Below, piece by piece: positions 38,522-55,750 of a DNA stretch of 64,000 nucleotides. The notes under the pieces were generated by a model. That model saw only the letters and a list, made by a program, of their open reading frames with translations, did not search any database and had not been told where the DNA came from. This DNA is from Candidatus Hodarchaeota archaeon (GTDB lineage Archaea; Asgardarchaeota; Lokiarchaeia; Sigyniarchaeales; SOKP01). A program made the translations under genes and the position numbers. Within the stretch, counting starts at the first letter, position 1, and each line of letters starts with the position of its first letter. The stretch is taken from contig JBHLJY010000003.1 of the NCBI GenBank assembly GCA_048887225.1, positions 128,001 through 192,000 on the forward strand, written 5' to 3'.

Positions 38522-39142
38522 TTAAGCAGCACTTTCCATTGATGTACCGGAAAGTTTCTTATAATGGTTTAATACTGCTTGTCGTGCTGCGTATACGAAG
38601 GCTCTCTTCACGTTTATTCCAGTAATTGCTATTGTTTCGTAGATGAGACAGTGTGTGAGCTTAGCTGTATCTAAAACAGTTCTAATCTTAGCTATCTCCA
38701 CTAGGTCTTCTAAATCACGTTTATTAGCTAATAAAACTAATGGTACTTCAGGAGTAGGGTCATCTGGACTTGGAGGGATTAATTTATTTCCATAAAATTT
38801 TAACAATTCTTTCAAACTCCATATATTTTCCTCCCATTGGTCTATTAAAGAATCCCATGTAAAGATTACTGCATCAGTCCCTTTTAAAACAGTCTGTCTT
38901 TGGAATTTATGTCTACGCTGACCAGCGACAGTATAAACTTGAAAAACCACATTTGAAACTCTTGCTACGACACGATCAAAGAATAGAGTACGGCCTGTAG
39001 GATCTTGTATTTGTTGCATATCTCCTGATGCTAAACCTTCTCGATTGTAGACCCATTCTAGGGCTGTAGTTTTACCTCCAAGGCTTGGCCCATAAAAACA
39101 AATTTTGAAAACAAGTGTTCCATCCCCACGACGTGATGGCAT
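38522..39142 (-). CDS. MglA-like small GTPase
   Basis: GPSLGGKTT, GRTLFFD, TVAGQ, NKRD, ETIA. Confidence 0.88.
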   Translation of the reverse strand: MPSRRGDGTLVFKICFYGPSLGGKTTALEWVYNREGLASGDMQQIQDPTGRTLFFDRVVARVSNVVFQVYTVAGQRRHKFQRQTVLKGTDAVIFTWDSLIDQWEENIWSLKELLKFYGNKLIPPSPDDPTPEVPLVLLANKRDLEDLVEIAKIRTVLDTAKLTHCLIYETIAITGINVKRAFVYAARQAVLNHYKKLSGTSMESAA

Positions 39143-39259
39143 TTAAATGAGAACCTCAAATTTATTTTTCGAAAAATATTTTTTCTCTAATATTAAATCA
39201 AAAAAACTCATGAAATTTAAAAATTTGCTAAAACAAAAAAAAATAAAGAAAGAATTTTT

Positions 39260-41464
39260 TTAATAGTTAAAGACAATTTGATCTACGATATTATTTAGCG
39301 CATTTAATTTTTGAGTAATAATTATTTTTACTTTTTCTGTATTTATATCGGGATTTTTCATAAAAAGATCTTTTACAATAGATTCGCACTTAATTGCTTT
39401 TCTAGCTAATATTTTATGAGATTTGTTTGTTTTATCATATAGAGGTATTGGAAATGAGAATGGTCTTTTATGAATGTGTCTAGAACTCTTTATAAGTTTG
39501 ATATTTTTAGATAAAATTGGTGTGTTAAGAATGGCACATAAGTAATAAGCCTCTTCTTTAGAATCAGTCGAAAAATAATAATTTTCGGAGCTAACAACAA
39601 TTTTATTTTTTACGTTTTTAATTACTGCTGCTTTTAGATTAGATCCACTAGCATTATAAACGATTATATAATTTTTATTATCAATCTGTTTGGATAATTT
39701 ATTCCAATAATTTAAATTAGAGAATAACGTCTCAATGTTGCTTGTTTTTTTCTTTTTTGCTTGATATATATTGTTCATTTCGTTATAAAAGTTCATTGCG
39801 TATGTATATTGGTTAAGATATTCAAAATTAAATTTAAATTGATTATTAACGGGTAAGAAAACGTTTCGCTTACGTTTTAAAAGAAAAGGAATTAAATCTT
39901 TATTTAAAAACGTTTTATATTGAAAGCTTACTTCAATTTTTTTGTTTTGAAAATAATATTTCCAATTCTTTTTTGCTCTTGAATATATATCAGGATCGGT
40001 TGAGATTTCTAAATAATTATCGTCTTTTTTCTCTATTCGAAAAAACACAAGAGTTCTTGGAACTAACGTTGCTCCTTGGAAGAATTTGTTTTTATATCGA
40101 CTAACTGAGATTTTATTTATAATTTTTAATTGAGGTTCTGGAAGTATTAGCTTTACACCTTTTTTTTCGATTTTTAGACTCGAATAGTACGTTTGTTCAT
40201 AAAGCTCTAAATCATCGTTAAACACCTTAGCTTTAATCGGATATTTGTCTTTTATAGAAATCTTACTATCCTTACCAATATACTCCGCTTTCAAACAGAT
40301 ATGATTTATATTGAAAAAATAATTAGTAGGAAAATCCCAAATTTCTATATTATTAAATAACGAAAATGATCGAAATTTATAACAATGATCCCCGTTTAAG
40401 ACGCTTTTAGTAATTACAAAGAATATTTTACCTCCAATTTTTAAGAATTTTGTTGATGTATAAAAGAATAAAGTAGCTATTTCTATATGTGTGATGTATT
40501 GGCTAAGTGGTTTGATTCCAAATTCTTCTGCTAAATCACGAATTTTAATTTGATAATCTTTATCACTAATATCTTTATAAGTTAACCAAGGTGGATTTCC
40601 TATTATCAGATCAAAAGAATTATATAAATTTTTTAAGTTTATAAACATCAAATTTTCGTAATGCTGAGGAAATAGCGAATCTATTACATAAACATTAATA
40701 TTTGGGAGGATATCTTTCTGTGTGTCAAAATATTCTAAAAAAATTAAAAGAATATTGACTTTTGCTGTCATAGTTGCTAAAGGATTAATATCAAACCCGA
40801 ATACATTATTAATTGCTTTTTGTTTTAATTTATTTGGATTCTCAGAATTAAGGATTTTAACAATTATCTTAATTAAAAAATTTCCCGAACCGCAAGCTGG
40901 ATCTAAAACTTTTAAACCAACATTATAAGAATCGTCTACCATTTTACGAACGAGGTTAGAAGGAGTGTAGAACTCTCCTATTTTATGTCTAGTTATGGTG
41001 AAAAATATTTGCTGGTAGATATCAAGAAATAAATCTTCATAAGCCAAACTGGTAGATTCAATTATATTATATATTTTTTCAAATAGTTTCTTGTTGAAAT
41101 TTGTCCAATTATAGAAATAACCGAATTCAAACAGGTTGAATGCTTCTAGATTATTATTCTTACAATCATCGTAGCATTCTTCAAAATCGATATTTTGAAT
41201 AAAAGAGAGTTTTATTATTATCAAGGATTTCAATAACAAGGCAAAATATGTATGTTTCAAGAAAAGATCTGAGCTTAAAGATTCAGATTCACCAAAAATA
41301 TTCTTGAAAGTCTTATTCCATTGTTGAAATTTTACTTCAAATTCTTTTTTCTTGGATAAGGTTTTTTTTTCAAAATATTTCATTGATTCGTAGAAAAATT
41401 TTGAACTTAGACCAAAAAATTTAGCAATATCTTCACTACCTATAAGCTTTTTAGTACTAACCAT
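39260..41464 (-). CDS. N6-adenine DNA methyltransferase with C-terminal TRD (type IIG/Eco57I-like M-S part, no evident nuclease domain)
   Basis: GEFYTP, LDPACGSGNFL, GFDINPLA, IGNPPW; C-terminal YYL.AILN TRD-like region. Confidence 0.82.
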   Translation of the reverse strand: MVSTKKLIGSEDIAKFFGLSSKFFYESMKYFEKKTLSKKKEFEVKFQQWNKTFKNIFGESESLSSDLFLKHTYFALLLKSLIIIKLSFIQNIDFEECYDDCKNNNLEAFNLFEFGYFYNWTNFNKKLFEKIYNIIESTSLAYEDLFLDIYQQIFFTITRHKIGEFYTPSNLVRKMVDDSYNVGLKVLDPACGSGNFLIKIIVKILNSENPNKLKQKAINNVFGFDINPLATMTAKVNILLIFLEYFDTQKDILPNINVYVIDSLFPQHYENLMFINLKNLYNSFDLIIGNPPWLTYKDISDKDYQIKIRDLAEEFGIKPLSQYITHIEIATLFFYTSTKFLKIGGKIFFVITKSVLNGDHCYKFRSFSLFNNIEIWDFPTNYFFNINHICLKAEYIGKDSKISIKDKYPIKAKVFNDDLELYEQTYYSSLKIEKKGVKLILPEPQLKIINKISVSRYKNKFFQGATLVPRTLVFFRIEKKDDNYLEISTDPDIYSRAKKNWKYYFQNKKIEVSFQYKTFLNKDLIPFLLKRKRNVFLPVNNQFKFNFEYLNQYTYAMNFYNEMNNIYQAKKKKTSNIETLFSNLNYWNKLSKQIDNKNYIIVYNASGSNLKAAVIKNVKNKIVVSSENYYFSTDSKEEAYYLCAILNTPILSKNIKLIKSSRHIHKRPFSFPIPLYDKTNKSHKILARKAIKCESIVKDLFMKNPDINTEKVKIIITQKLNALNNIVDQIVFNY

Positions 41465-41493
41465 CCTATTTCAAAAATCTGTTTTCTTTACTC

Positions 41494-41664
41494 TTAACCA
41501 ACCTTTATTAAAATCCAATCTAAATAATTTAAATCATAAATATTGTTATTAGAAGAATTATTTCTTTCTTCAGTTTTATATAAAGATGTATCATTGGTGA
41601 TAGAATTTAGCGCTGGCGTTATATTAAGCTTTTTAGCATTTATTGCTTTCTTATTCTTATCCAT
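41494..41664 (-). CDS. Possible small 56-aa protein (MDKNKK...LIKVG)
   Basis: ATG preceded by AGGA, in the gap between co-oriented genes; below the ORF-track cutoff. Confidence 0.25.
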   Translation of the reverse strand: MDKNKKAINAKKLNITPALNSITNDTSLYKTEERNNSSNNNIYDLNYLDWILIKVG

Positions 41665-41760
41665 AAGTAAATCCTATCTAGATTTTTGAGATTGAAAAGA
41701 AGCGATTTGAATTAATTTTTTATTTTCTTATATTTATAACTTTAAAAATTATAAGGTTTG

Positions 41761-42303
41761 CTATCGCATGAATGAGGGAAGCATTAGGTTAAAGATTTCA
41801 GCAATTATTTTTATACTTGCTACTTCTTTAATGGTAGTTATTATTAATACACTTCTCGAAAGCTCGTCTCGATCTAGAGTGCCACCAGAATATATTGCTA
41901 AATCATTATTAAACATCAATAAGTATTTCACATATGGATTGTTTATTACGTTAATTCCTTCAATGCTTTTTAACTCATCATAAATTCTTCGCTCTTTTTT
42001 CTCATATACATTTCGATCGCGTGTTATTAATAAAATTGGAATCCCTCTTTGAGCTGCCCTTTTTAATTCTATACTATAAAAATCATCTATTTTTGGGGTC
42101 ACAATATTTAGTTGGTCTTGTGTAGTTTGGATGAACTCTATTAATTTCTCGTTAAGTAATTCCTTGTTGTCACCTTCACCTGAAGACTCTATAACTATAT
42201 TACCTACTAATGCTAACACTCTTTTTTCGAATTCTTCTATTTGTTGTTTTAATCTTCGATTTTCTAGCCGTAATTCATTTATTCGATCAGTCAAGTCAGA
42301 CAA
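41761..42303 (-). CDS. Coiled coil + degenerate PLD-like (TrmB-C-like) domain protein
   Basis: LNIVTP.ID, AAQRGI..LLITR, and VKYLLMFN..AIYSGG.L where HxK(x4)D..GSxN is expected. Confidence 0.6.
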   Translation of the reverse strand: MSDLTDRINELRLENRRLKQQIEEFEKRVLALVGNIVIESSGEGDNKELLNEKLIEFIQTTQDQLNIVTPKIDDFYSIELKRAAQRGIPILLITRDRNVYEKKERRIYDELKSIEGINVINNPYVKYLLMFNNDLAIYSGGTLDRDELSRSVLIITTIKEVASIKIIAEIFNLMLPSFMR

Positions 42304-42410
42304 AACACATCAACTTCTACATTCTTTTTTGTTATTTTGCTTCTTATTATTTCTTTTATTTGTTAATCTATTTATAATTTTATTATTTTTACTTTTTAGA
42401 AAAACTTAAA

Positions 42411-44912
42411 TTATAGTTTGTTCCACGGCTTACCGAAATGTAAAAATGAACTAATTGCGATACCACTTTTACATTGTTGCCTAGCTCTAAGAAGTGAAGT
42501 TCCTTGGCTTTCATTATTAAATAAACTAAGGTAAAAATTCGCTATAATACTTTGAGTATCTTCATTAAAAAATGGATATGTCCTAGTTATTATACCTATA
42601 ATACGATTATAGTCAAATTGCCTAATGATCTCACCAAAAATTTCTAAGACATTATTTAGTTTTTCTCCTTCAACGTTAAAAACCTGCGCATTAAAAAACA
42701 AAAATGGATGCGAATTAGATTTATTTTTATCTATAGCCTTCTTTATTTCATTAAAGGTTATTAGAGTGTTATCATTCGTAAGAATATAACTATCTTTGGG
42801 ACTCATTCTGGAATAAAAAATATTTCCAACAAAATGAATAATATGAAAAGCCCCTTCTGAAATATTTGATAATATTTTTTCGCGAGTGGAATGTATTCCA
42901 GATAGAATAGTAAATTGATTAACATTTTCCGTTGTATTAAAAAAATCTGTAATGTGATTTAATTCATCGTGAGCATCAGGGAACGGAAAGATTAAAGTTT
43001 TATTTTTGTACTCCTCATTCCATTTTAAAGGCCCTTTTGCATTTGTAGCTTCAATTAATAAAACATTAAATAAGGTCTTAGTTGGGATTGTAATGGATTC
43101 CTCTTGAGCTAATTGTCCAAATTGAATACCAGCAAGAGGAGGTTCGCCGATTTTATAGCCACTTGAATATTTTAACATGAAAAATTTATCGTCATCATAC
43201 AAGAAACCAAAAGGTATTGTCATTTTATCTAAAATAAAATAAATATGAGGTATAAAATCTAACTTTTTAACTTTTAATTGCTTGAAAAAATCTCTCAATA
43301 AGTTTGGTAAGAATATATATAACAGCTTTCCAAATTCTATTATATTAAATTGATATCTCTTTTCTTTTCTTCCTGAAAAAATGTCATTAAAAATTTCCAT
43401 TATTTGATGATCGTTCCATAATTCATCAGTTATTTTTCCCTCAACTATTGCATAATCCTTAGATATCATACGAAAAGAAATCAGACCTTCTGAATTAATC
43501 CGTATTATTGCTTGATTCAAAATAAAATCAGGATTAATCGATGTTAAATCTTCTTCAAACGAATATATTTGATTTTTAATTGATTCACACTTATTGTATA
43601 AAGAATTTAAGTCAGTTAATTTTTCTCTAATATTTTCATCTAAATATGGGATTATTTTTTGTGCGAGATTAAAATCTTTTTCTTCGTATAAAGCGCGATA
43701 GAACATCATTCTCCAAAAATCAGCGGTTTCTAACGTGAAAAATTTGCTTTTAAATTGCCAGAGATAATTACAAGTATAGAAATAATGATAAATTTGAACC
43801 GGAGTTTGAGGTGTTTTTAAATGATTGCTTAATTTTTCCATAGATAAAAGCAAATATTTTCTTTCTTTAATATCAACAAACTTTTTACAAGCTTCAACCC
43901 ATAACTCAATTAAAGAAACGTCGTACCCTAAATCTGTTTTATCCATAAAAATATCTTCCAAAAAATCATATATTTCATAAGCAATTAAAAACCGATTTCT
44001 ATTTATAGAAAAATCAACAAATTTACGGATATAACTTAGGGCAACTTCAATAGTTTGAAATTCTTTTAATTTAGTAAAAGCATATCTTATTATTATAATA
44101 ATCCATGTAAATTCTCCAATGTTATTTAAATAATAAATTAATTCCTCCAAATCAGATAGAATTACACTAAAATTCTGCTCATTTACTGAAATTTCTCTCA
44201 TATTGGAGAAATCTTCTTTTAAATAATTTGGTAAGCGTTTTGCTATAATTTTATTAATAATTTGAACGAAATCTAGAGATTCCTTTGGTGAACCTTCAAT
44301 GAGGTGATATTTTATATTAACATTTTCCATAAAAACAAATAGTAATAACGCTTTTGTGCTCGGTTCCAGGTTATAAAGAATTTCTCCTAAAATTTTTAAG
44401 CTAAAACGGAATAAATCTGATGAAAATATTCTTTTTCTTAAATATGCTAATAAGAATTGTAATTCGATAAGTTTGAGATAATCTCCCCTTTCTTTAACCT
44501 TAAGTGAGAATGAATTTATAAATTTAGTTATTCCTTCAATAGATAATTCATCTACTTTTATGAAACTTTTTAAAAGAATCATCCAAAAATTATTAAATAA
44601 ATCAAATTCATCTAAATTGGAAAGAAAGGAAAAAAAACGTTTGTAAGCGTCAATATATCTGATTTTGTCAATTTTATCTTTTTGACTTTTCAAAGAATTT
44701 AAATAAATCCACCATGAATTTGCAATAATCATTATTAATTGACGCTTTTTTTGAGGAGCTAACCATTCTGTTTTTTCAATTTCAAAATATAAATTAGAAA
44801 ATAATCTACTTGCCCATTGATGATTAGCTGAATTAAGTAATTGCCTTCCTTGAAGTATTCCTTTTTGAAAATTCATTAAGAATTGATTTTTAATATCAGG
44901 ACTAATTGTCAT
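42411..44912 (-). CDS. Alpha-solenoid protein with C-terminal CHAT (caspase-like) domain, catalytically degenerate
   Basis: About 450-aa helical N-part; GKLLY, IPF..L, A.DEL..I, IIHFVGN, FFNAQ, FY..L, SLLRARQ, F..FGKP CHAT landmarks. Confidence 0.72.
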   Translation of the reverse strand: MTISPDIKNQFLMNFQKGILQGRQLLNSANHQWASRLFSNLYFEIEKTEWLAPQKKRQLIMIIANSWWIYLNSLKSQKDKIDKIRYIDAYKRFFSFLSNLDEFDLFNNFWMILLKSFIKVDELSIEGITKFINSFSLKVKERGDYLKLIELQFLLAYLRKRIFSSDLFRFSLKILGEILYNLEPSTKALLLFVFMENVNIKYHLIEGSPKESLDFVQIINKIIAKRLPNYLKEDFSNMREISVNEQNFSVILSDLEELIYYLNNIGEFTWIIIIIRYAFTKLKEFQTIEVALSYIRKFVDFSINRNRFLIAYEIYDFLEDIFMDKTDLGYDVSLIELWVEACKKFVDIKERKYLLLSMEKLSNHLKTPQTPVQIYHYFYTCNYLWQFKSKFFTLETADFWRMMFYRALYEEKDFNLAQKIIPYLDENIREKLTDLNSLYNKCESIKNQIYSFEEDLTSINPDFILNQAIIRINSEGLISFRMISKDYAIVEGKITDELWNDHQIMEIFNDIFSGRKEKRYQFNIIEFGKLLYIFLPNLLRDFFKQLKVKKLDFIPHIYFILDKMTIPFGFLYDDDKFFMLKYSSGYKIGEPPLAGIQFGQLAQEESITIPTKTLFNVLLIEATNAKGPLKWNEEYKNKTLIFPFPDAHDELNHITDFFNTTENVNQFTILSGIHSTREKILSNISEGAFHIIHFVGNIFYSRMSPKDSYILTNDNTLITFNEIKKAIDKNKSNSHPFLFFNAQVFNVEGEKLNNVLEIFGEIIRQFDYNRIIGIITRTYPFFNEDTQSIIANFYLSLFNNESQGTSLLRARQQCKSGIAISSFLHFGKPWNKL

Positions 44913-44938
44913 TAAGATTAATTACCCATTTTTTATGA

Positions 44939-46087
44939 TTACCCTTTATATTCTGGATTTGGTTTCCACCCTTCTTGTAACTGTTTTTTTGAGTATAATA
45001 TTGATGCCCCAATCCACGACATATTTTCACGACCAGAAACTGCAAACACATTAATTTTATCTCTTATTTTTTCGGAAAAATACTTAGTTAATTCAAGCTT
45101 CAATCTCTCCTTTAATCCAGGAATTAAACTACCTCCCCCCGCAAGAATAATATTAGGAAGTAATTCTTCCCAATTCTCTCGATCCCAGGATTTGATAACT
45201 TTAACTATTGCTTCATCTAATCCAAAATAATCTATATGAATTAATCCTGGATTAAATAAAGGTTCAGATAACATGAATCGCTCCTCGTTTATTTTTAAGC
45301 TGGATCCATCGGGAAAATTAACTTTTTGGTCGTAATTAGTAAGTCCATCTCTTATGCTATTGCTTTCACCTTCAGCATCTAATACACATAGTGAATATTT
45401 ATCTTTAATTTCTTTTGCAAGCCATTTATCAAGATAAAAATTCTCTTCTGACCCCTTTCTAGTTAATATCATATTAAGGAAATAATTTGTCAAATCCTTC
45501 CCTGCTATAGGAAAGATATCTCGTGCCATAATATTTGTGAATCCGTGAAAAATCGTGGAAAAATAAGTATTGGATTCTCCCATATTAACTACAACTCCGG
45601 TGGTTTTCTTTAAAGTTTGTAAAATAGCTTGACTTTCAGATAAAAATAATAAATAAGGGAAGTTTAAGTCTCGAAAAAAAATTTGTTCCAACTTAGTTTT
45701 TTCCAATTCTGTCATAAAAAAAGGAGAAATCACAATTATTGATTGTTTATTTTGATATTCAGATTGGATATTTAATTGTTGATAATAATAATGAAAAAAT
45801 TTTGAAAAAATATTGTAATTATTCTCTTTTTTAAACTCATGAATATTTAATATATTTTGGTATTTTAAGGCATTAAGGCCATATAAGTGCCTTTCAGTAT
45901 TTTCTTCAATAAAAAGTTCAGCAAGTCCATCAACTACATCTGATTCAAATATATAATCTGTAGCATCCACATGAACGCTAGGTACAATAATTTCTGGTGA
46001 ATCATCACCAGCCCAGCCTAAACGAAAAGTACTACTTCCGATGTCTAAAATCAAAGGTCTTAATTGCTTATTATCAGCAGATAACAT
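44939..46087 (-). CDS. Actin-related protein (divergent Asgard actin/ARP)
   Basis: LDIGS..RLGWAGDDSP, TTGVVVNMG, AGKDLT, EIK, PDG..ERF..EPLF.P, LAGG.S.IPG, SWIGASIL. Confidence 0.92.
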   Translation of the reverse strand: MLSADNKQLRPLILDIGSSTFRLGWAGDDSPEIIVPSVHVDATDYIFESDVVDGLAELFIEENTERHLYGLNALKYQNILNIHEFKKENNYNIFSKFFHYYYQQLNIQSEYQNKQSIIVISPFFMTELEKTKLEQIFFRDLNFPYLLFLSESQAILQTLKKTTGVVVNMGESNTYFSTIFHGFTNIMARDIFPIAGKDLTNYFLNMILTRKGSEENFYLDKWLAKEIKDKYSLCVLDAEGESNSIRDGLTNYDQKVNFPDGSSLKINEERFMLSEPLFNPGLIHIDYFGLDEAIVKVIKSWDRENWEELLPNIILAGGGSLIPGLKERLKLELTKYFSEKIRDKINVFAVSGRENMSWIGASILYSKKQLQEGWKPNPEYKG

Positions 46088-46119
46088 ATTAAATGAGATA
46101 TTTGATTAAAATTAATAAT

Positions 46120-46902
46120 TTATAACGAAAAAAGCTCTTTTTCATGAATATATTCGTCTGTCAATCTTTTTAATTGATATTCTTTAACTTGTAATTCAAG
46201 CATCCCTAAAACCTTTTTAAATTCAAGGGACATGGTTTCAATATTTACGCCAGAAACCTTTTCGATTTCATCCCTTTTCGTCTTAAATTGACTTAAATTC
46301 AATTTTATTTTATCGAATAGATTGTTTATTGAAGAAATTAAATCCTCGGTGTTTTTCTTGGTGAATTTTCGCATTTTCCTTAATATAGCTAATATATTGC
46401 TAATACTATTTTCCCATTGATTATATCTTTCGTTATAACCTTTCATAAAATCCTCTAAAAATACTTGTAAATTCTTATAAATATTATATTTAGGTGGTGT
46501 AGTCTCAATAGGTTTTTGAATGGGGGCACTACTTTTAGTTGTTTTTCTTTCAGATATAGGGATATCTTCTATAAGATAATCTTCAACAATTTCGCTTTTT
46601 CTCTCATAAGATAACTGTGGTTCAATTTTTTCTTCTGCTTTTTCTTCACGATGATACCAAGTTTCTTCAGATACTCCTGTTAATAATCCCTGTAAATCTA
46701 TTTGAGCCTCCTTGGCAGAGCTTAAAGCAGAACTCAATGCCGAGTCTAATGATAATTCCGTTTCTGGTATTTCTGCAGCTTTTAAAGTAGCACCCGAAGA
46801 AATTTCTAGTCCTTTTTTCTTGGTCGTTTTTAGAGCATCTTCCAATGAGGTGTCTGTTTTTTTCTTTTTAGACGATTTTTTTTTCTTTTTATTCTTAGCC
46901 AT
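46120..46902 (-). CDS. Hypothetical protein: Lys-rich N-tail, disordered linker, C-terminal coiled coil
   Basis: MAKNKKKKKSSKKKK; heptad-like helical C-terminal 110 aa. Confidence 0.7.
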   Translation of the reverse strand: MAKNKKKKKSSKKKKTDTSLEDALKTTKKKGLEISSGATLKAAEIPETELSLDSALSSALSSAKEAQIDLQGLLTGVSEETWYHREEKAEEKIEPQLSYERKSEIVEDYLIEDIPISERKTTKSSAPIQKPIETTPPKYNIYKNLQVFLEDFMKGYNERYNQWENSISNILAILRKMRKFTKKNTEDLISSINNLFDKIKLNLSQFKTKRDEIEKVSGVNIETMSLEFKKVLGMLELQVKEYQLKRLTDEYIHEKELFSL

Positions 46903-47025
46903 TAAGAATAAGCCTTTATTATTGTTTAATCTACTAATTTAATATTACAATTAATTTATAAATCTATTTTACAATCAATGTATTTTTAACAAGATTATTT
47001 TATTTATTGAATTGAACAAAATTTC

Positions 47026-47427
47026 TTACTCTAAGGGGATTATCTCTACTTCAAGAGCATCTCCTTCGATTTTTAAAATTTCTTTGAGCTTCTCAAGGTC
47101 CATCTCTTTTGGTCTCGGTCCAATCACAGTCCACATAGCGGTTTTCTCTTTTTCAATAGTTAACGATTCTCCATAAACTAGCGAAATCCCGTGATTTCCA
47201 AAAGTCGTAGCTATTTTTGCCAATGATCCAGCTTCATCCTTCATTAATATTCTAAATTTAAGAGAATCACCTTTAATTCCAACTGGGGTTATTCTGATTT
47301 CTTTTGTATCTGAATCTGCGATCATCATTAACTGTGAGTTCTCAGTCAGTCCTAGACTTTTTCTAATCGTCATTGGAATTACTATTCTTCCTCTATTATC
47401 TATAACCAAAAACTTGACATCCTTCAT
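47026..47427 (-). CDS. AbrB/MazE/SpoVT DNA-binding domain fused to an ACT domain
   Basis: IDNRGRIVIP..IRKSLGL; DEAGSLAKIATTFGNHGISL ACT motif. Confidence 0.85.
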   Translation of the reverse strand: MKDVKFLVIDNRGRIVIPMTIRKSLGLTENSQLMMIADSDTKEIRITPVGIKGDSLKFRILMKDEAGSLAKIATTFGNHGISLVYGESLTIEKEKTAMWTVIGPRPKEMDLEKLKEILKIEGDALEVEIIPLE

Positions 47428-47593
47428 CTTTTTAATTAATTCTTAAAATTTTTTTAATAATTATTAAAGCTATTAAATATATAAATTAATACTTTAAAGG
47501 AGAAAAGAAATTTTATTTTCTTACTATGATATAACGTTAAATGATACTAGTTTGCTAATATAGAAAGACTTGGAATATTTAAAAATAAAATAC

Positions 47594-49768
47594 TTATGTT
47601 TTATGGGCCTTCAACTTCACTGTAAGGTCTCTTGCTCGCTTTGAATACCAGACCAATAAATCTCCAGCGTTTTCGGGCTTAAAATATTCGCCACCGCATA
47701 AAGTTGCAGCACGAGTCATTAATGCGTCATTAGGATTCCCCAACCCAACTATATAAATGACTACATTTAAATTCTCAGAGAATCTCTTTGCTGCTTCAAA
47801 AAACGCATTACCATCAGTAGGTTCACCATCAGTTAACAAAACAATCATGGTTGGCTGATCTGGGGATATTTTTTCAAATTCGTTTAGAATTAATTGAGCT
47901 TGTTCCATAGCATGTCCCATATTGGTGGCCTGTCCATATGAAGAGGCGATTCTATCAACGATCATCTTCGCAGCCTCCTCTAGAATTCCTTTTTTACCAC
48001 TAGCGGAATCCATATAAAATCCACCTCCAAAGGGTAGTACTTGGGCCTCATCAGCAAATCGGATAACAGCAACTTTTTCTCCAAAACCACGACCAACTTT
48101 TTCACTTAGGAATAGAACTGCTGCAAATGCAGCCGAAATTCTTCTTGGGATGTTGATGCCATCCTTGAATTTTTTTAAGAATTCTTGAATTTCACGAGAT
48201 TCCATTGCTGCCTTAATACCCTCAATTGCTGGCGCAATATTAGTTACAAGCACATCACGTGCCATCATGGATCGACTTATGTCAATTATCAAAATAGCAT
48301 TAAAAGGTATCAAACCCAATGGTGATAGGGTTAATGTTGTATTTTTCGTAATTTGAGCTAATATATCACCGGTTAAGTCTGGAACGCAATCAATAATAGA
48401 ACAAGCAATATTAACTGCGTTCCATCTTAATTTAATTCCCTTGAAAATGATATAATTTGAAAGCCAATCCTTTAAAGCTTCTACACTCTGTCTAGCATTG
48501 CTTATAATTTCCCACATATTCTCGCCAGAAATGGGTGAAACCCCTAAAGAAACGCTTTGTAAAGGAATGATTTGTCGTTGATTTTTTGAAATTTTTACTT
48601 CAAAGCTACCAATTCCAGACGCTTCTAAAATTTCACTATCAATAATAATTATATTATCAGGAACTGTTTCTACAACAACAACCTTACCCGCTCCAATTGC
48701 TCCCGTAAGTTCATCTTCGAATGCTAAAACATCATTATTTTGAATTGAAATTGTATGTTGCGTTCTTGGACTTACTTGACAAAAACCATTTAAATTTGGC
48801 TGCGATTGGACTTCTAATATTATTTCAGACGCTTTTTGAATTGGTGGCTCTGTAGAATATATTACGATTTGTTCAGCTTGAATATTCGTATCTTCTAATG
48901 TGTCTTTGCTCATTCTTATCTCAGTATCGCTAATTTGCGCTTGATCTATTCTCGCAGAACCCATAGATCTCGTTAGAGGGTCTTCCCATGCGATCAACAT
49001 ACCTTGTCCAAGGCCTAATTGTTGCAAAACGTTAAGACTTAGTTGTACTCGACCTCCTTCTATGTTATTATCTATAACAGGAGTTTGAATTATCCCTTTT
49101 TTCTGATTTTTTAACATATTTATATCAATCCTATTAGGATAAGGTTCTACTGGAGCTACTGGAGCGATGGTTTCTTGCGTCGGCATTGGTTGAAGTGTTG
49201 ATGGTGGTGGTGGCATTGAAGAAGGAGGGGCCCTTATTTGAGGAGGAGGTTTAAACTGTGGTGTTGGAGTAAATTGTGTGGGTGGGGGTATTTGTTTAGG
49301 TGGTGGTGGGTGTGCGGGCAGAGGTGCTTGTATAGGTTGTGTTGGTTTTATAGGTGGAGGTGTTGGTGCGAGCTGAGATGATGGAGGTGGTTGAGGTACA
49401 GGTGTAAATTGAGGTGCAACACTTGGTTCTGGTGGTTGAAGAGACGGTTGAGAAGTTAAAGCGGATTTTGATGGTACTGTAGGTTCGGCTTCTTGTGAAA
49501 TAGGTGGAGCTGCGGTGCTTGGTCTTATAATAACTTCAATACCTGTAAATTCTATTTCATCAATGATGTTTTTTGAAATCATCCCAGCAAAATCTAATGC
49601 AGAATTAGAAATTTCAGCAAGAGCAATAGTACTTCTGCCATTCTCTGGATTAATAATTTCTACAGACGATCTTGTTGAAATACCAAGTTTTTTAGCATTG
49701 GACGGACTAATAATTGCTTTATTTTTGGTTTCGTCTTTAATATCTACAAAAATCTTTATTTCTGGCAT
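47594..49768 (-). CDS. Proline-rich protein with Cdc48-N-like double-psi barrel repeats and C-terminal vWA domain
   Basis: MIDAS DISRS..T..LTDG; about 125-aa Pro/Gln/Thr-rich tract; three (I/L/V)S...LG/SI repeats. Confidence 0.75.
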   Translation of the reverse strand: MPEIKIFVDIKDETKNKAIISPSNAKKLGISTRSSVEIINPENGRSTIALAEISNSALDFAGMISKNIIDEIEFTGIEVIIRPSTAAPPISQEAEPTVPSKSALTSQPSLQPPEPSVAPQFTPVPQPPPSSQLAPTPPPIKPTQPIQAPLPAHPPPPKQIPPPTQFTPTPQFKPPPQIRAPPSSMPPPPSTLQPMPTQETIAPVAPVEPYPNRIDINMLKNQKKGIIQTPVIDNNIEGGRVQLSLNVLQQLGLGQGMLIAWEDPLTRSMGSARIDQAQISDTEIRMSKDTLEDTNIQAEQIVIYSTEPPIQKASEIILEVQSQPNLNGFCQVSPRTQHTISIQNNDVLAFEDELTGAIGAGKVVVVETVPDNIIIIDSEILEASGIGSFEVKISKNQRQIIPLQSVSLGVSPISGENMWEIISNARQSVEALKDWLSNYIIFKGIKLRWNAVNIACSIIDCVPDLTGDILAQITKNTTLTLSPLGLIPFNAILIIDISRSMMARDVLVTNIAPAIEGIKAAMESREIQEFLKKFKDGINIPRRISAAFAAVLFLSEKVGRGFGEKVAVIRFADEAQVLPFGGGFYMDSASGKKGILEEAAKMIVDRIASSYGQATNMGHAMEQAQLILNEFEKISPDQPTMIVLLTDGEPTDGNAFFEAAKRFSENLNVVIYIVGLGNPNDALMTRAATLCGGEYFKPENAGDLLVWYSKRARDLTVKLKAHKT

Positions 49769-49991
49769 ATTTTTTCAAATTGTATTCTTTTTTAAGGAAT
49801 TATTTAATTACATTAATTTTTTAAGAAATGACAGTAATTAAATTTTGAGATTGTTTTCGTAGATTGAATATATTTTACTTATTCTTCAAATATTTTTAAT
49901 GGTATTTAAAAGTTCAAATGGTTTTTATTTTTTTATAAGCACTTAAAAAAGCTTTTCTAAATGCGAGGAATAAATGATTACTATGATTAGA

Positions 49992-50381
49992 TTAAAGAGC
50001 GGGGTATCTTTTACCTATTTCTCCTGCATAATACCTAAAGACAGTGACAACTTTTCCTAAATCTGCTATCTTTCTTGAAGCGCCCATAAGGAAGAACCGA
50101 CCAGCAGCGCTAAGTATGATAAATGCGTCCTCACCTCTTAATACTACTTCCAACATATTATGATATCCCATTGTATCAACAGCGTCAGAACCACTCTTCA
50201 TAACAACTGCACTTAAACTTGAGAATAAATCAGGTTCAATTTCATAGCTTGGAATACAGCTAAAGGCCAATTGTAAACCTTCTCTAGTCACTAACGCGAG
50301 CGCTTCAAGCTCAGTGTGTTCAGTAATATTCCCTAAAAAATTCGATAAGCTTTTAGCCTCGTCTGGAGTTAAACTAACCAT
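49992..50381 (-). CDS. Roadblock/LC7 domain protein
   Basis: ALVTREGL, SLSA..M, EVVLRG, DLG.V pattern. Confidence 0.85.
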   Translation of the reverse strand: MVSLTPDEAKSLSNFLGNITEHTELEALALVTREGLQLAFSCIPSYEIEPDLFSSLSAVVMKSGSDAVDTMGYHNMLEVVLRGEDAFIILSAAGRFFLMGASRKIADLGKVVTVFRYYAGEIGKRYPAL

Positions 50382-50535
50382 TTTAACTTTTTTTCTAAAT
50401 TTATGTTCTATTTTAAATAATATTATTATGAGTTTTGAACTTAAAAATGTATAGTTCTTAAGGTAGGATATAAATTACAAATTAGAAAAGGATTATTACT
50501 CCACAAATTGAATAAAATAAATAGAGTCTAATTAA

Positions 50536-51405
50536 TTATTTAAACTCTCCAAGCTGCGTTTTAATTTGATCTTTAAGGATTTGCTTTTTATCTTTATATT
50601 CAGTGGCTCCTTTCACTTTTTTTGATGATTCACTTTTTAGAAACTCAATGGCGACAATCTTTCCATGCTCGGAAAGAACTCGTGGAGAATACCCTTCAGC
50701 AAAAAAAATACCCTCAGGGATTGATCCTACTTCTTCAATCTTTTTCTCAGTCTGTTTTTTACCTAAGAAGGTTGTAACTTTTTCGACAACCGAATATGCG
50801 TGATTACCAATTATTATTAATTCTCTTTCATAGCCGTCAGGAATTTTTATTTCTTCTAATTTCTGCATAATTTGATCAAAATCTATTGGCTTTTCCTCTT
50901 GAACATAGCTTTCCATTGATTCTTTACCTGTATATAACGGTCCTATATTAGAAGTCGAAGATTGAATTGTCTTGCTACCCGCTATATTCATACCTTCGGC
51001 AGGGGTAGGTGCTTCAAATGTAGCTTTTTCCCTTAAAGGATGCCCTCCACCTCCACCTGCCGCTTTAGCTGCTTTTTCTTCTTTAATCTCTTTTGCTATA
51101 CCTGCTTCTGTTTTCCCTCCAATGACTTTTAGAAACTCATCCGTTTCTTCTGCTTCGTCAAGGGGCACGACAGCATAATGCATTCCAACTTGTCCTCTAA
51201 TTTCTTGACTCCTTTTTGCACCTATAAATTTTGAACGGACGGATGATTGTATCCCCTTCCACAGAAAAACTTTTCGAAGATCATCCGCTACTATGACGTA
51301 ACACTCATCGGTTTTTAGAAGGTCTTTAACAGCCCCATCTGAGGTTAGTTCTGTGGTTGTACCGTCTGGATTGATTAAAAAAACCTGTAGGCCCAATTTC
51401 CTCAA
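50536..51405 (-). CDS. Gelsolin-domain protein (single gelsolin domain + C-terminal extra domain, 1DGelX-like)
   Basis: LKTDECYVI..VFLWKG..SS.RSKF.GAKR..EI...EAEET.EF gelsolin repeat; low-complexity linker; compact C-domain. Confidence 0.82.
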   Translation of the reverse strand: MRKLGLQVFLINPDGTTTELTSDGAVKDLLKTDECYVIVADDLRKVFLWKGIQSSVRSKFIGAKRSQEIRGQVGMHYAVVPLDEAEETDEFLKVIGGKTEAGIAKEIKEEKAAKAAGGGGGHPLREKATFEAPTPAEGMNIAGSKTIQSSTSNIGPLYTGKESMESYVQEEKPIDFDQIMQKLEEIKIPDGYERELIIIGNHAYSVVEKVTTFLGKKQTEKKIEEVGSIPEGIFFAEGYSPRVLSEHGKIVAIEFLKSESSKKVKGATEYKDKKQILKDQIKTQLGEFK

Positions 51406-51558
51406 CTCTTTGGCTAATTTATTTTATTACAAATTACTTTTTTTATTTATATAATAATAGGTTATTTCTTTATAAAATTTTTAATTATAAGAAATGTATG
51501 TGCTTTCAGATATAATTATTTTTCTATTAAAATCATAAATAAATTTGGGGTAAAATTA

Positions 51559-53124
51559 TTAACTTCTAAGTAAATCTGAGACTGCCGAATTGATATGATT
51601 AATCATATCCATGGCTGTAAATCTAGATCCAACTTTACTTTTACAATATTCTCCGAAATAACCGTTTAAAAATGCTGCTGAACAAGCAGATCGGAAGGTA
51701 TCATTATTCATCGTAAGAAAACATCCGCATAAACCAGCTAAAACGTCTCCAGTGCCTCCAATAGACATTTCAGGACATCCAGTTTTATTAATTTTCAATT
51801 TTTTTCCATTGCTAATGTAATCGTATGGTCCTTTTACTAATAAAGTGAGGTCTAGCTTTTTTGCTAAATCAAAAATAATTTTTCCTCTCCCTTCAATATC
51901 ATCATAAGGAGGTAAATCGATACCTATCATTATTTTTAATTCACCCTCGTGAGGAGTTAAAATAACTGGTTGACCTTTGAGCAAATTAAGATAGTTACTC
52001 ACTAATTTTAATGCATCAGCATCTAAAACAAATGACTTTTTATCTTGTCTTAATTTTTCAAGTAATTTAACTAGAAGTTCTTCAGTTTCTTTCTCTTCTC
52101 CTATTCCTGGACCAATAATTATTGAATTAGACCAATCAATCAACCACGAGATCTCATCTAATGCATTTTTATTCAGGAAATCGCCTGGACTAGTTCTTAC
52201 GATCATATTTGGGGAATAACTCCTAACTACATCTCCTATAACTTCTGGTGTATAGGTTATAACTAAGTCAACTCCAAAATTAATACTAGCTAAAGACGAG
52301 TATGTGGGGGCGCCCGAGTAATTTTTCGACCCTCCTACTATTAAAATTCTCCCAAACTGCCCTTTATGGGTATCAGATTTTCTAACTTTCAGAGTAGGAA
52401 TTAGATCTCCTCTTCCTACAAATAATCTTGCTTCTAGAGGGATCCCTATTGATTTAACGATCATTTCATTAATGTATTTAGTATTAATCTTCATACCTTT
52501 CTTAATTCGATGGAAGGTTATAACTAAATCCGATTTTACAGCCTTATCTAAAACCTTACCATTGTCCGGATTTAAACCGGAAGGTACGTCAATTGAAACG
52601 ACTTTAATATTTTCTTCTTCCCTTAGAGCATTAATCAAATCTACTGCTGAAGAAATTGGCTCTCTGATGTTTCCACTTATTCCAGTTCCTAACAAACCAT
52701 CTATAATTAAATTATATCTTTTTTTCTCTTTAATAAGTGTGTCAATTTCTGTTAATTCAGCCGAATCCATTATAATTTTTATTTGTATTGAATGATTAAG
52801 ATGTTTTGTAATGATATTCCAATTTAAATTTGCCTCTTTAGTTCTTATATTTTCTGGGGCACCTAAAAGGATAACCAATACCTTTATACCATATGACGAT
52901 AAATGACGAGCGACCACAAATCCATCACCCCCATTATTTCCCGTACCGCAAAATATGGCAACTTTAGAATTTTCTTCCAGATTATACCTTTTGATGACTT
53001 CATTAGCAAAAGAATAACCTGCACACTCCATCAAATAACTTTTTGGTATTCCTAACCATTCTGTGTTATTATCCAAAATCGCAATTTCTTCAGATGATAT
53101 CTTTTCAGAATTTAATCGTTCCAT
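51559..53124 (-). CDS. nnr: Bifunctional NAD(P)H-hydrate epimerase/dehydratase
   Basis: LMECAG, GTGNNGGDG, SIDVPSG, HKG..G, GPGIG, DADAL, TPH.GE, GGTGDVLAG. Confidence 0.95.
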   Translation of the reverse strand: MERLNSEKISSEEIAILDNNTEWLGIPKSYLMECAGYSFANEVIKRYNLEENSKVAIFCGTGNNGGDGFVVARHLSSYGIKVLVILLGAPENIRTKEANLNWNIITKHLNHSIQIKIIMDSAELTEIDTLIKEKKRYNLIIDGLLGTGISGNIREPISSAVDLINALREEENIKVVSIDVPSGLNPDNGKVLDKAVKSDLVITFHRIKKGMKINTKYINEMIVKSIGIPLEARLFVGRGDLIPTLKVRKSDTHKGQFGRILIVGGSKNYSGAPTYSSLASINFGVDLVITYTPEVIGDVVRSYSPNMIVRTSPGDFLNKNALDEISWLIDWSNSIIIGPGIGEEKETEELLVKLLEKLRQDKKSFVLDADALKLVSNYLNLLKGQPVILTPHEGELKIMIGIDLPPYDDIEGRGKIIFDLAKKLDLTLLVKGPYDYISNGKKLKINKTGCPEMSIGGTGDVLAGLCGCFLTMNNDTFRSACSAAFLNGYFGEYCKSKVGSRFTAMDMINHINSAVSDLLRS

Positions 53125-54796: not shown

Positions 54797-55750
54797 TTAT
54801 TGCGACTTACTTAAAATTTTATATGCTACGTATATAAATGATTCATTAATATTTTCTCCTGTTTTTGCTGATGTAAGAATATAATGAAAACCAAGCTCAT
54901 CAGCAACAGATTTAATTTCTTCTTCGCTTATTACAATCTTATCTTTTAAATCAGATTTATTTCCTACTATTACAATTGGAATATTAGAGGATAAGTCTTT
55001 TGTAATATCAGCATACCAAGATTTAATACTCTTAATATTTCCTTGACGAGTACGATCTATAACTATAAATGCTGCATTTGCTCCACTATAAAATTGAGCT
55101 CTATACGGCGCCATAAATTGGATTTGTCCCGCAATATCCCAAATAACGAAAGTTATTTTAGTTTTTTCATTTAAATTATAATCCTTTTTTGAGATTTCAA
55201 CTCCTAATGTAGAAATATAATCATCTTTAAATTCATTTTTAGTAAATGTTCTTATTATAGAACTTTTTCCAACTTGATAATCTCCCGTAATAATTACTTT
55301 TTTTGTAAAGTCTCCTGTCGAAAGAGTCCCCTCTTTTGTTTTTGAAAGAAATTGAATCGCATCTGGGATTTCAAGAGAAATATCTTCCTGTCCCTCTAAT
55401 ATTAATTCAATTTTTCCTGCTATGTGCTCTGATAGCACTCTTAATTGAACATCAGGAGTAGATATTTCAGTTATAGCTGTTAAAATTGAATTTGGTCCCT
55501 GCGAACAAAATACAAATTTCTTATCGCTTGTAGTAGTCACATTAAAAAAGTTATTTTCAACACCAAATTCATCTTTTAATTGATCGATATACTTTTCTAC
55601 GTAGGTAGAAATTCCACCTATAACAATATCGTCTTGCTCCTCTCCTTCTGAAATAATGACAAGGCCGTCTATATCGCATACAGCTACTACTATTACTCCT
55701 TCTATATTATTCATATAATTTAATACTAAAGTTTTCAGTTGTTCTTTCAT
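54797..55750 (-). CDS. Roadblock/LC7 domain fused to Rab-like small GTPase
   Basis: N-terminal GV..VAVCDIDGL roadblock; GDYQVGKS, STLG, WDIAGQ, NKSD, TSAK. Confidence 0.88.
   Translation of the reverse strand: MKEQLKTLVLNYMNNIEGVIVVAVCDIDGLVIISEGEEQDDIVIGGISTYVEKYIDQLKDEFGVENNFFNVTTTSDKKFVFCSQGPNSILTAITEISTPDVQLRVLSEHIAGKIELILEGQEDISLEIPDAIQFLSKTKEGTLSTGDFTKKVIITGDYQVGKSSIIRTFTKNEFKDDYISTLGVEISKKDYNLNEKTKITFVIWDIAGQIQFMAPYRAQFYSGANAAFIVIDRTRQGNIKSIKSWYADITKDLSSNIPIVIVGNKSDLKDKIVISEEEIKSVADELGFHYILTSAKTGENINESFIYVAYKILSKSQ

Follow-up and report, generated by a model that had tools for sequence, protein, structure and literature searches.

The eight consecutive minus-strand genes at positions 41761–51405 of the window (the whole 64,000-nucleotide stretch analyzed here) are two unrelated conserved clusters that touch in this Asgard family, rather than one system. 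Module A is a separate conserved trio of genes for a gelsolin-like protein (50536–51405), a roadblock/LC7 protein (49992–50381) and a vWA protein with a Pro-rich linker (47594–49768). Module B encodes a coiled-coil protein (46120–46902), an actin-related protein (ARP; 44939–46087), a dead solenoid-CHAT protein (CHAT; 42411–44912) and a dead PLD-fold protein (41761–42303), the first and last of these flanking the ARP–CHAT core. An AbrB-ACT regulator gene (47026–47427) lies between the modules. All eight open reading frames are present at the positions assigned to them in an earlier sequence-only reading, as are the short gaps it described between coiled coil and ARP (32 bp) and between ARP and CHAT (26 bp), although its title named only six of the genes and omitted AbrB-ACT and PLD-fold. 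The remaining gaps within the eight are 107–223 bp. The minus-strand run as a whole holds 11 genes (38522–53124), including a DNA methyltransferase gene and one for a 521-aa protein that we read, from its motifs, as a putative NAD(P)HX-repair enzyme Nnr; a boundary drawn at eight is therefore arbitrary. Purifying selection acts on all eight genes (dN/dS 0–0.33 against one congener). Scanning for sigma-70 promoters, the wrong model for archaea, gave chance-level output.

The sequence-only reading had combined the eight genes, and possibly an MglA-like GTPase gene (38522–39142), in one actin-regulatory system. In favor of such a system, gene order is kept in many genomes of this family, and the L. 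ossiferum orthologue of the gelsolin-like protein, B35_Gel1 (UYP47899.1), co-precipitates with Lokiactin in published data (log2 2.08, adjusted P 0.025). However, synteny largely refutes the proposal, which we now regard as very improbable. Modules A and B are ~310–320 kb apart in both cultured Lokiarchaeia (P. syntrophicum and L. ossiferum), where the orthologue of the MglA-like GTPase occupies a third, separate location, and across these two species and H. repetitus the gelsolin, roadblock, vWA and GTPase genes lie ~130–830 kb from the ARP locus. The same four genes are retained where ARP and CHAT have been lost, and the vWA gene is sometimes missing from the cluster although ARP and CHAT are present. 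Module B recurs in three families of a single order, with P. syntrophicum (DSAG12_01478–81) and L. ossiferum among its carriers, but linkage of all eight genes, as expected of a single operon, is not conserved across families. The vWA–AbrB junction is broken in 12 of 52 loci, the methyltransferase gene adjoins MglA in only 3 of 52, and T-tracts and gaps of 123–223 bp separate the upstream genes of the run. In the published L. ossiferum Lokiactin co-immunoprecipitation (co-IP), the vWA orthologue is not enriched (ratio −0.02), and the Arf found there is a 38.1-kDa protein, not the 23-kDa orthologue of the MglA-like GTPase.

The gelsolin-like protein of module A, which in the explanation we narrowly prefer would be an ordinary Lokiactin regulator, matches 7whg Loki 2DGel (E 2.6e-6; the Pfam E-value is only 0.047). 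It consists of a single gelsolin domain and a C-terminal domain, an arrangement shared with B35_Gel1 and with Thor 1DGelX (PMC7444086); the 'GelX' of the L. ossiferum study is another protein (UYP44381.1). An Nnr-like enzyme gene adjoins gelsolin in both families, so conserved adjacency is by itself weak proof at this locus. The roadblock/LC7 protein is very conserved. The vWA protein has a weak CDC48-N-like N-terminus, followed by the linker and a C-terminal vWA domain; its earlier description as a poly-Pro protein fits the Pro-rich linker (residues ~80–200), but the longest proline run is only 4. The AbrB-ACT protein has an AbrB/MazE-type DNA-binding domain and an ACT domain and is PRK08577-like. 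Its gene is mobile, being the upstream neighbor of module B in some lineages and unlinked in the cultured species.

The ARP is a divergent protein of 382 aa that belongs to the actin family (E 3e-48; PF00022 164.7 bits, above cut-off), and its predicted model has the full actin fold (Z 39 to actin, rmsd 2.5 Å over 350 residues). Conventional actin is its closest match in structure and sequence searches. It nevertheless forms a clade of its own, with support of 100/100 and separate from the slow-evolving Lokiactin clade in a tree built without eukaryotic Arps; members of this clade were found in one archaeal order only, and the source genome encodes a Lokiactin separately, on contig C5. Using site numbers taken from alignment to Lokiactin and from the strands and helices of the predicted model, not from a solved structure, the ARP appears to be without actin's hydrolysis residues: over 58 aligned rows the Gln137 site holds E/D/H/A/F/S, the Asp154 site N/S/D and the His161 site Y/S/T/R/N/L. 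The clade retains Asp11, Gly13, Gly156 and the glycine of the adenine loop. An acidic insert occupies the D-loop, the chain stops short of actin's last helix, and Trp301 and Phe337, in subdomain 3 by alignment, are invariant and specific to the clade. The ARP would probably still bind nucleotide but hydrolyze it poorly, and we hold it to be quite probable that it does not polymerize. Its orthologues are DSAG12_01479 (QEE15652.1) in P. syntrophicum and UYP47647.1 in L. ossiferum, the latter assigned by primer match, identical record, shared clade and shared gene order. UYP47647.1 is one of three non-Lokiactin homologues in Ca. Lokiarchaeum ossiferum, for which PMC9834061 gives only phylogeny and a lower transcript level by RT-qPCR; its supplement places the four orthogroups of module B in consecutive order (actin, CHAT, PLD). 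The functions of Asgard ARPs are described as unknown (PMC7444086).

The CHAT protein (833 aa; PF12770 27.6 bits against a cut-off of 24, E 2.5e-6) has the separase-like clan CD architecture: a helical solenoid (residues 1–447) followed by pseudo-protease and caspase-fold domains (~460–833). Among solved structures its fold is nearest to Csx29, separase and SAVED-CHAT, with the C-terminal part aligning to the Csx29 and separase folds at Z 17.9 and rmsd 3.5–4.0 Å over ~280 residues. The earlier characterization as a dead caspase is borne out, as the His–Cys dyad is gone across 58 aligned rows. The catalytic His is replaced by Asn697 (Asn in 57 rows, Ile in one, His in none) and the catalytic Cys by Gln743 (Gln in 52 of 58, never Cys), and in the same columns distant CHAT paralogues retain HFAGH and SAC. 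Csx29/TPR-CHAT of type III-E CRISPR and separase share the combination of solenoid, pseudo-protease and caspase fold; unlike them, the present protein lacks the dyad, has a family-specific hairpin with an invariant Trp631, is encoded with an ARP and has no active CHAT paralogue in its genome. DSAG12_01480 is the P. syntrophicum orthologue.

Genetically, ARP and CHAT act as one unit. In 89 of 90 informative loci CHAT comes immediately after ARP, with a median gap of 23 bp and frequent overlaps, and all five of the most distant full-length CHAT relatives checked follow a same-clade ARP at −4 to +4 bp; such overlapping or near-zero gaps persist down to 25–31% ARP identity. Neither gene is present, and the coiled-coil gene directly meets the PLD-fold gene, in H. 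repetitus with two congeners, in one further genus and in genome G159, which fall on three separate branches of the tree. The G159 locus retains a 205-codon CHAT remnant and may be misassembled. Apparent losses in three other genomes (G130, G276 and G372) were contig ends and were discarded. Since a class-wide CHAT search overlooked a divergent copy in G324, absence was called from a fully scored ARP search and intact coiled coil–PLD junctions. At two loci, G324 and L188, the order is ARP–CHAT–coiled coil, indicating that the pair moved as a unit. The two genes have never been seen split by loss, and their distribution is single-copy and vertically inherited. Adjacent genes can vanish in one deletion, which makes co-loss weaker evidence here than it would be for scattered genes. 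No fusion of ARP to CHAT turned up; in G310 and G258, the long proteins with an actin domain carry low-complexity tails instead. Inter-protein mutual information over 79 paired sequences gave gap noise only, a complex prediction with CHAT 204–833 and ARP 9–378 (CHAT 1–203 left out) scored 0.00, which is non-informative either way, and a single P. syntrophicum RNA-seq run, with flat depth over genome-length contigs, was uninformative on co-transcription.

Of the earlier proposal of an ARP complex with both solenoid and coiled coil, the genetic link between ARP and CHAT is supported. Next to the pair, the coiled-coil gene persists across three families, yet its product is not an obligate partner, because the gene is kept in every examined genome that lost ARP and CHAT. 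The protein has a Lys-rich tip, a variable acidic linker and a conserved helical domain (~136–256), with orthologues DSAG12_01478 and UYP47648.1, and is without a family, solved-structure or useful atlas match. The PLD-fold protein (orthologues DSAG12_01481 and UYP47645.1) combines an N-terminal coiled coil with a TrmB C-terminal-like PLD-fold domain and ends in a conserved LP(S/T)FMR. Its profile matches NucT (E 0.0023) with the HxKxxxxD (HKD) motif replaced, and the TrmB-type winged helix is absent, as the sequence before the domain is just a 30-residue coiled coil and no HTH family matched. Two candidate ligands of the solenoid were set aside: the LPSFMR end, because genomes that lack CHAT retain it, and the Lys-rich tip, because L. 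ossiferum lacks it although CHAT is present. In the L. ossiferum proteome (bioRxiv 10.1101/2025.11.30.690169), with IDs of module B proteins mapped by interpolation, log2 values are 21.7 for Lokiactin, 19.3 for PLD-fold and 17.9 for coiled coil, and neither ARP nor CHAT is among the matches listed above 14.4; by this inferred mapping, both are scarce.

We lean, by a small measure, toward a model in which ARP and solenoid-CHAT form a dedicated, low-copy, non-enzymatic complex beside an independent module A. Physical binding of the two is probable; the dead separase/Csx29-like protein, with its solenoid and emptied caspase fold, would serve as a binding scaffold that holds the ARP. The more abundant coiled-coil and PLD-fold proteins may function without the pair and would be at most docking partners, and docking of the pair on them is suggested only tentatively. 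The likeliest role, by analogy with the eukaryotic structural subunits Arp4–Arp10, would be that of an accessory adaptor positioning or capping something for the coiled-coil and PLD-fold proteins. Alternatively, module B might be a co-regulated operon of pseudo-enzymes with loosely tied functions that form no stable complex, with ARP and CHAT dispensable. One deletion could explain each loss, housekeeping neighbors are likewise syntenic, and the 100% complete G022 has the other three genes while its PLD-fold gene was not found. The persistently tight ARP–CHAT spacing and the pair's joint relocation and unsplit loss make this quite improbable.

An Arp2/3- or dynactin-like function as nucleator, capper or anchor of Lokiactin, with the ARP seeding or capping a filament that the solenoid tethers, would draw on the full actin fold, the invariant Trp301 and Phe337 and scarcity relative to Lokiactin, which suits a nucleator (proteome; RT-qPCR in PMC9834061). 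A precedent is the crenarchaeal arcade cluster, in which, as in module B, an archaeal actin-family gene belongs to a small cluster with partner genes of its own; in the arcade cluster, arcadin-1 and -2 bind crenactin (PMC5173319). Crenactin forms filaments, whereas the module B ARP appears to lack hydrolysis residues. Its neighbors are the dead CHAT solenoid, a PLD fold that is likewise dead and a coiled coil, and Pfam and NCBIfam profile scans of the module genes gave no arcadin match. The ARP's D-loop insert and missing C-terminal helix, and the retention of Lokiactin in H. repetitus, which lacks the pair, count against an Arp2/3- or dynactin-like function. Module B IDs are not among the co-IP matches listed, from the top down to a ratio of −1.06, an absence meaningful only for the two flanking proteins, which are abundant. 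On balance a nucleating, capping or anchoring function seems unlikely, and somewhat more so the elaborated form in which ARP and dead solenoid are the core, and the flanking proteins the adaptors, of an archaeal ARP machine acting on Lokiactin filaments. The resemblance to Csx29, separase and SAVED-CHAT could also point to defense or death, with CHAT acting, like c-FLIP, as decoy for or regulator of an active protease of the caspase family and the ARP as sensor. We give this almost no credence: searches of the 98%-complete genome gave neither a second CHAT match nor a Peptidase_C14, PADLOC matched none of the module genes scanned, and the distribution is single-copy and vertical.

Eukaryotic ARPs act as subunits of complexes. 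Those of Arp4–Arp9, dynactin Arp10/11 and Arp2/3 resemble the module B ARP in combining a divergent actin fold with an eroded ATPase site (partly PMC12050087), and by this analogy the latter is likely a structural subunit, as are the non-polymerizing eukaryotic Arps; in contrast to these, structure and sequence searches with it place conventional actin first, and its clade was found in just one archaeal order. A literature search by accession and terms, covering few subscription papers, returned no description of the module B cluster or its partners. Module B names a concrete partner candidate for an ARP found in both cultured Lokiarchaeia, supplies a natural loss lineage, H. repetitus, to compare it with, and would show an archaeon putting a separase-like architecture to new use as a dead scaffold. 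Should the ARP machine exist, prokaryotes would have evolved a counterpart of Arp2/3 or dynactin independently. Module B bears on whether the complex-subunit habit of ARPs predates eukaryotes; since just one order yielded it, the module probably arose within that lineage and is not the ancestor of a eukaryotic complex.

All eight minus-strand genes that a sequence-only reading had joined into one actin-associated system, possibly with an MglA-like GTPase, are present as described. Pfam matched actin, CHAT, vWA, roadblock and AbrB plus ACT domains and, weakly, PLD-like and gelsolin domains; the gelsolin identity was confirmed by comparison with solved Asgard gelsolins. The short operon-like gaps are also real: 32 bp separate the coiled-coil gene (46120–46902, minus strand) from the ARP gene (44939–46087, minus), and 26 bp separate the latter from the gene for the solenoid-CHAT protein (42411–44912, minus). 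The remaining gaps within the eight-gene run are 107–223 bp, several with T-tracts, and purifying selection acts on each of the eight genes. The full minus-strand run comprises 11 genes, including a DNA methyltransferase and a putative Nnr-like enzyme (51559–53124, minus), as read from its motifs. The methyltransferase (39260–41464, minus) is Eco57I-like, has no obvious nuclease partner and is conserved 3′ of the PLD-fold gene (41761–42303, minus) in much of the window's family at 47–93% identity. We also note a 317-aa protein (54797–55750, minus) that looks like a fusion of a roadblock-type domain and a Rab-like small GTPase.

By its orthologues, the window genome falls in the order that also holds Promethearchaeum syntrophicum (G038), Ca. 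Lokiarchaeum ossiferum (G325) and Ca. Harpocratesius repetitus (G032). The complete eight-gene order is frequent within the window's family and linkage to housekeeping neighbours is equally so, with the vWA–AbrB junction broken in 12 of 52 loci; these junction counts take in only genes inside the fetched loci and so overstate outer-gene linkage. In P. syntrophicum, the ARP block lies at 0.996 Mb, the gelsolin–roadblock–vWA trio at 1.315 Mb, the AbrB–ACT regulator (window 47026–47427, minus) at 0.77 Mb and the MglA-like GTPase at 1.82 Mb, and the same separation is seen in L. ossiferum and H. repetitus. Because the ARP block and the trio are far apart in three species and the trio itself is conserved (in all three and in genome G030), the cluster divides into two modules: A, the trio, and B, the coiled-coil, ARP, CHAT and PLD-fold genes. 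Conservation of the neighbourhood holds for the coiled coil–ARP–CHAT order across three families, but not for the module A genes, which lie elsewhere in the cultured species. The MglA/Arf-like GTPase (38522–39142, minus; 80–99% identity in the family, ~70% in cultured species) is unlinked to both modules outside close relatives.

Several variations on module A were observed. The roadblock gene is inverted within the trio of G030 (L196 5278–5670), a genome without ARP and CHAT in which a different gelsolin paralogue directly follows the PLD-fold gene (L062 4979–5929). Loci L080, L081 and L082 have gelsolin–roadblock–AbrB without the vWA gene, with ARP and CHAT intact. The H. repetitus vWA gene (L195 4403–6712) is 22% identical to the window's, versus 54–56% in neighbouring genera, reflecting either strong lineage-specific acceleration or replacement. 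The Nnr-like gene is the immediate neighbour of the gelsolin gene both in the window's family and in the three cultured species.

The order coiled coil–ARP–CHAT–PLD is kept across three families, down to ~31% ARP and 22–25% CHAT identity. The CHAT protein was detected in 118 of 134 genomes of the window's family and in 1/1 and 6/14 genomes of two others, plus G324, whose copy was missed by the class-wide search; it was found in 0/4 genomes of a fourth family, and searches of other orders gave generic CHAT-domain matches only. An exhaustive profile search set the full-length CHAT proteins well apart from generic CHAT domains as a discrete family. The coiled-coil profile had no match in 151 genomes sampled outside two families. 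In other orders (L065, L092 and L093), distant coiled-coil/PLD-fold relatives stand alone; their LPxF end is similar, and the protein therefore predates module B.

The core of module B is the ARP–CHAT pair. ARP lies immediately 5′ of CHAT at all but one of the 90 informative loci (89/90); the exception has both genes, 3.8 kb apart. The five most distant CHAT representatives examined all follow a same-clade ARP at gaps of −4 to +4 bp. The pair also moves as a unit: G324 and L188 have the order ARP–CHAT–coiled coil, with the PLD-fold gene of G324 on a separate contig. The coiled-coil and PLD-fold genes directly adjoin each other (12–117 bp apart) in H. repetitus, two of its congeners and a second genus, where neither ARP nor CHAT has left a trace and the actins still present fall in other clades; a search for the solenoid that recovered G324 as positive control was negative for G032, G028, G030 and G159. 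G159 shows either a recent loss of ARP and three quarters of CHAT or a misassembly. Three ARP–CHAT losses map to separate branches, with the caveat that neighbouring genes can vanish in one deletion. The 100% complete genome G022 keeps three module B genes and gave no PLD-fold match.

The predicted ARP model (pLDDT 86) has a full actin fold that lacks actin's last helix and carries an acidic D-loop insert of ~10 residues. Asp11, Gly13, Gly156 and the adenine-loop glycine are retained, Gln137, Asp154, Gly158 and His161 vary across 58 orthologues, and Trp301 and Phe337 are invariant and clade-specific. From these features, we infer that ARP probably binds nucleotide, hydrolyses it weakly and forms no canonical filament. 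In the predicted CHAT model (pLDDT 85, pTM 0.74), pseudo-protease and caspase-fold domains come after a helical solenoid, with Csx29 and separase as nearest folds; the catalytic His site is Asn or Ile in 58/58 rows, and Gln predominates at the Cys site. The PLD-fold protein lacks both the HKD motif and a DNA-binding domain.

Other actin-family genes drew our attention. In genome G000 (C9:33946–36804), the gene for another ARP paralogue, the second (371 aa), has three flanking genes on the same strand, one of 221 aa and two, similar to each other, of 121–123 aa, which may be its own partner cluster. In another order, L112 593–2926 and L113 452–3013 encode proteins with an actin domain (777 and 853 aa) whose long acidic tails are made of repeated FxKID-like motifs and close with a similar KEKEEKLL-like end.

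The L. ossiferum orthologue of the window ARP, UYP47647.1, is one of three ARPs with transcripts severalfold below Lokiactin (PMC9834061). Its GenBank model (L078 8700–9790; 307 aa) does not include the N-terminal phosphate loop; the reading frame stays open 5′ of the annotated start and the RefSeq version has 362 aa, together implying a non-standard start codon. Module B protein IDs were interpolated between published anchors (03963 PLD-fold, 03964 CHAT, 03965 ARP, 03966 coiled coil); the arrangement of flanking genes supports this mapping, which may be shifted by one position. Under these IDs, the PLD-fold and coiled-coil proteins would be abundant in the proteome of bioRxiv 10.1101/2025.11.30.690169 (19.3 and 17.9, against 21.7 for Lokiactin, all log2), and ARP and CHAT would not be among the proteins listed (at least 14.4 log2), the same split as in the gene losses. 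By inferred ID mapping, the product of a small Lys/Ala-rich ORF of histone-H1-like composition (L078 15376–15699) ranks with the most abundant proteins of L. ossiferum (23.8 log2).

Published Lokiactin co-immunoprecipitation bears on both modules (bioRxiv 10.1101/2025.11.30.690169). In its supplement, IDs 04217, 04218 and 04220 correspond by mass to the Nnr-like, gelsolin and vWA orthologues. The gelsolin orthologue, B35_Gel1, is enriched (log2 2.08, adjusted P 0.025), as a single eight-gene system might lead one to expect, but the vWA orthologue is not (−0.02), and the enriched Arf (38.1 kDa) is a different protein from the window GTPase's orthologue (23 kDa); we regard one system as very improbable. 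The Nnr-like orthologue is enriched too (log2 1.66), indicating either background or an unnoticed link. Nucleation or capping of Lokiactin by ARP and CHAT is a minority possibility, though one we take seriously; none of the four module B proteins, under the interpolated IDs, is among the co-immunoprecipitation rows listed. That the genes form a loose operon whose products make no complex seems improbable. A role for CHAT as a caspase decoy is scarcely credible, because searches of its genome gave no other CHAT match and no C14 peptidase.

We consider it somewhat probable that a scarce ARP–pseudoprotease complex works as a non-enzymatic adaptor in an accessory role to the coiled-coil and PLD-fold proteins. 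ARP and the dead CHAT protein would join in a low-copy complex, which would serve the other two proteins without enzyme activity of its own. Module B genes have been annotated singly and stand consecutively in a published orthogroup table; our literature search found no paper on the cluster. The arcade cluster already provides an actin-family gene with dedicated neighbours (PMC5173319). Module B shares this arrangement but differs in its members, and its pairing of a degenerate ARP with a dead separase-like scaffold is new.
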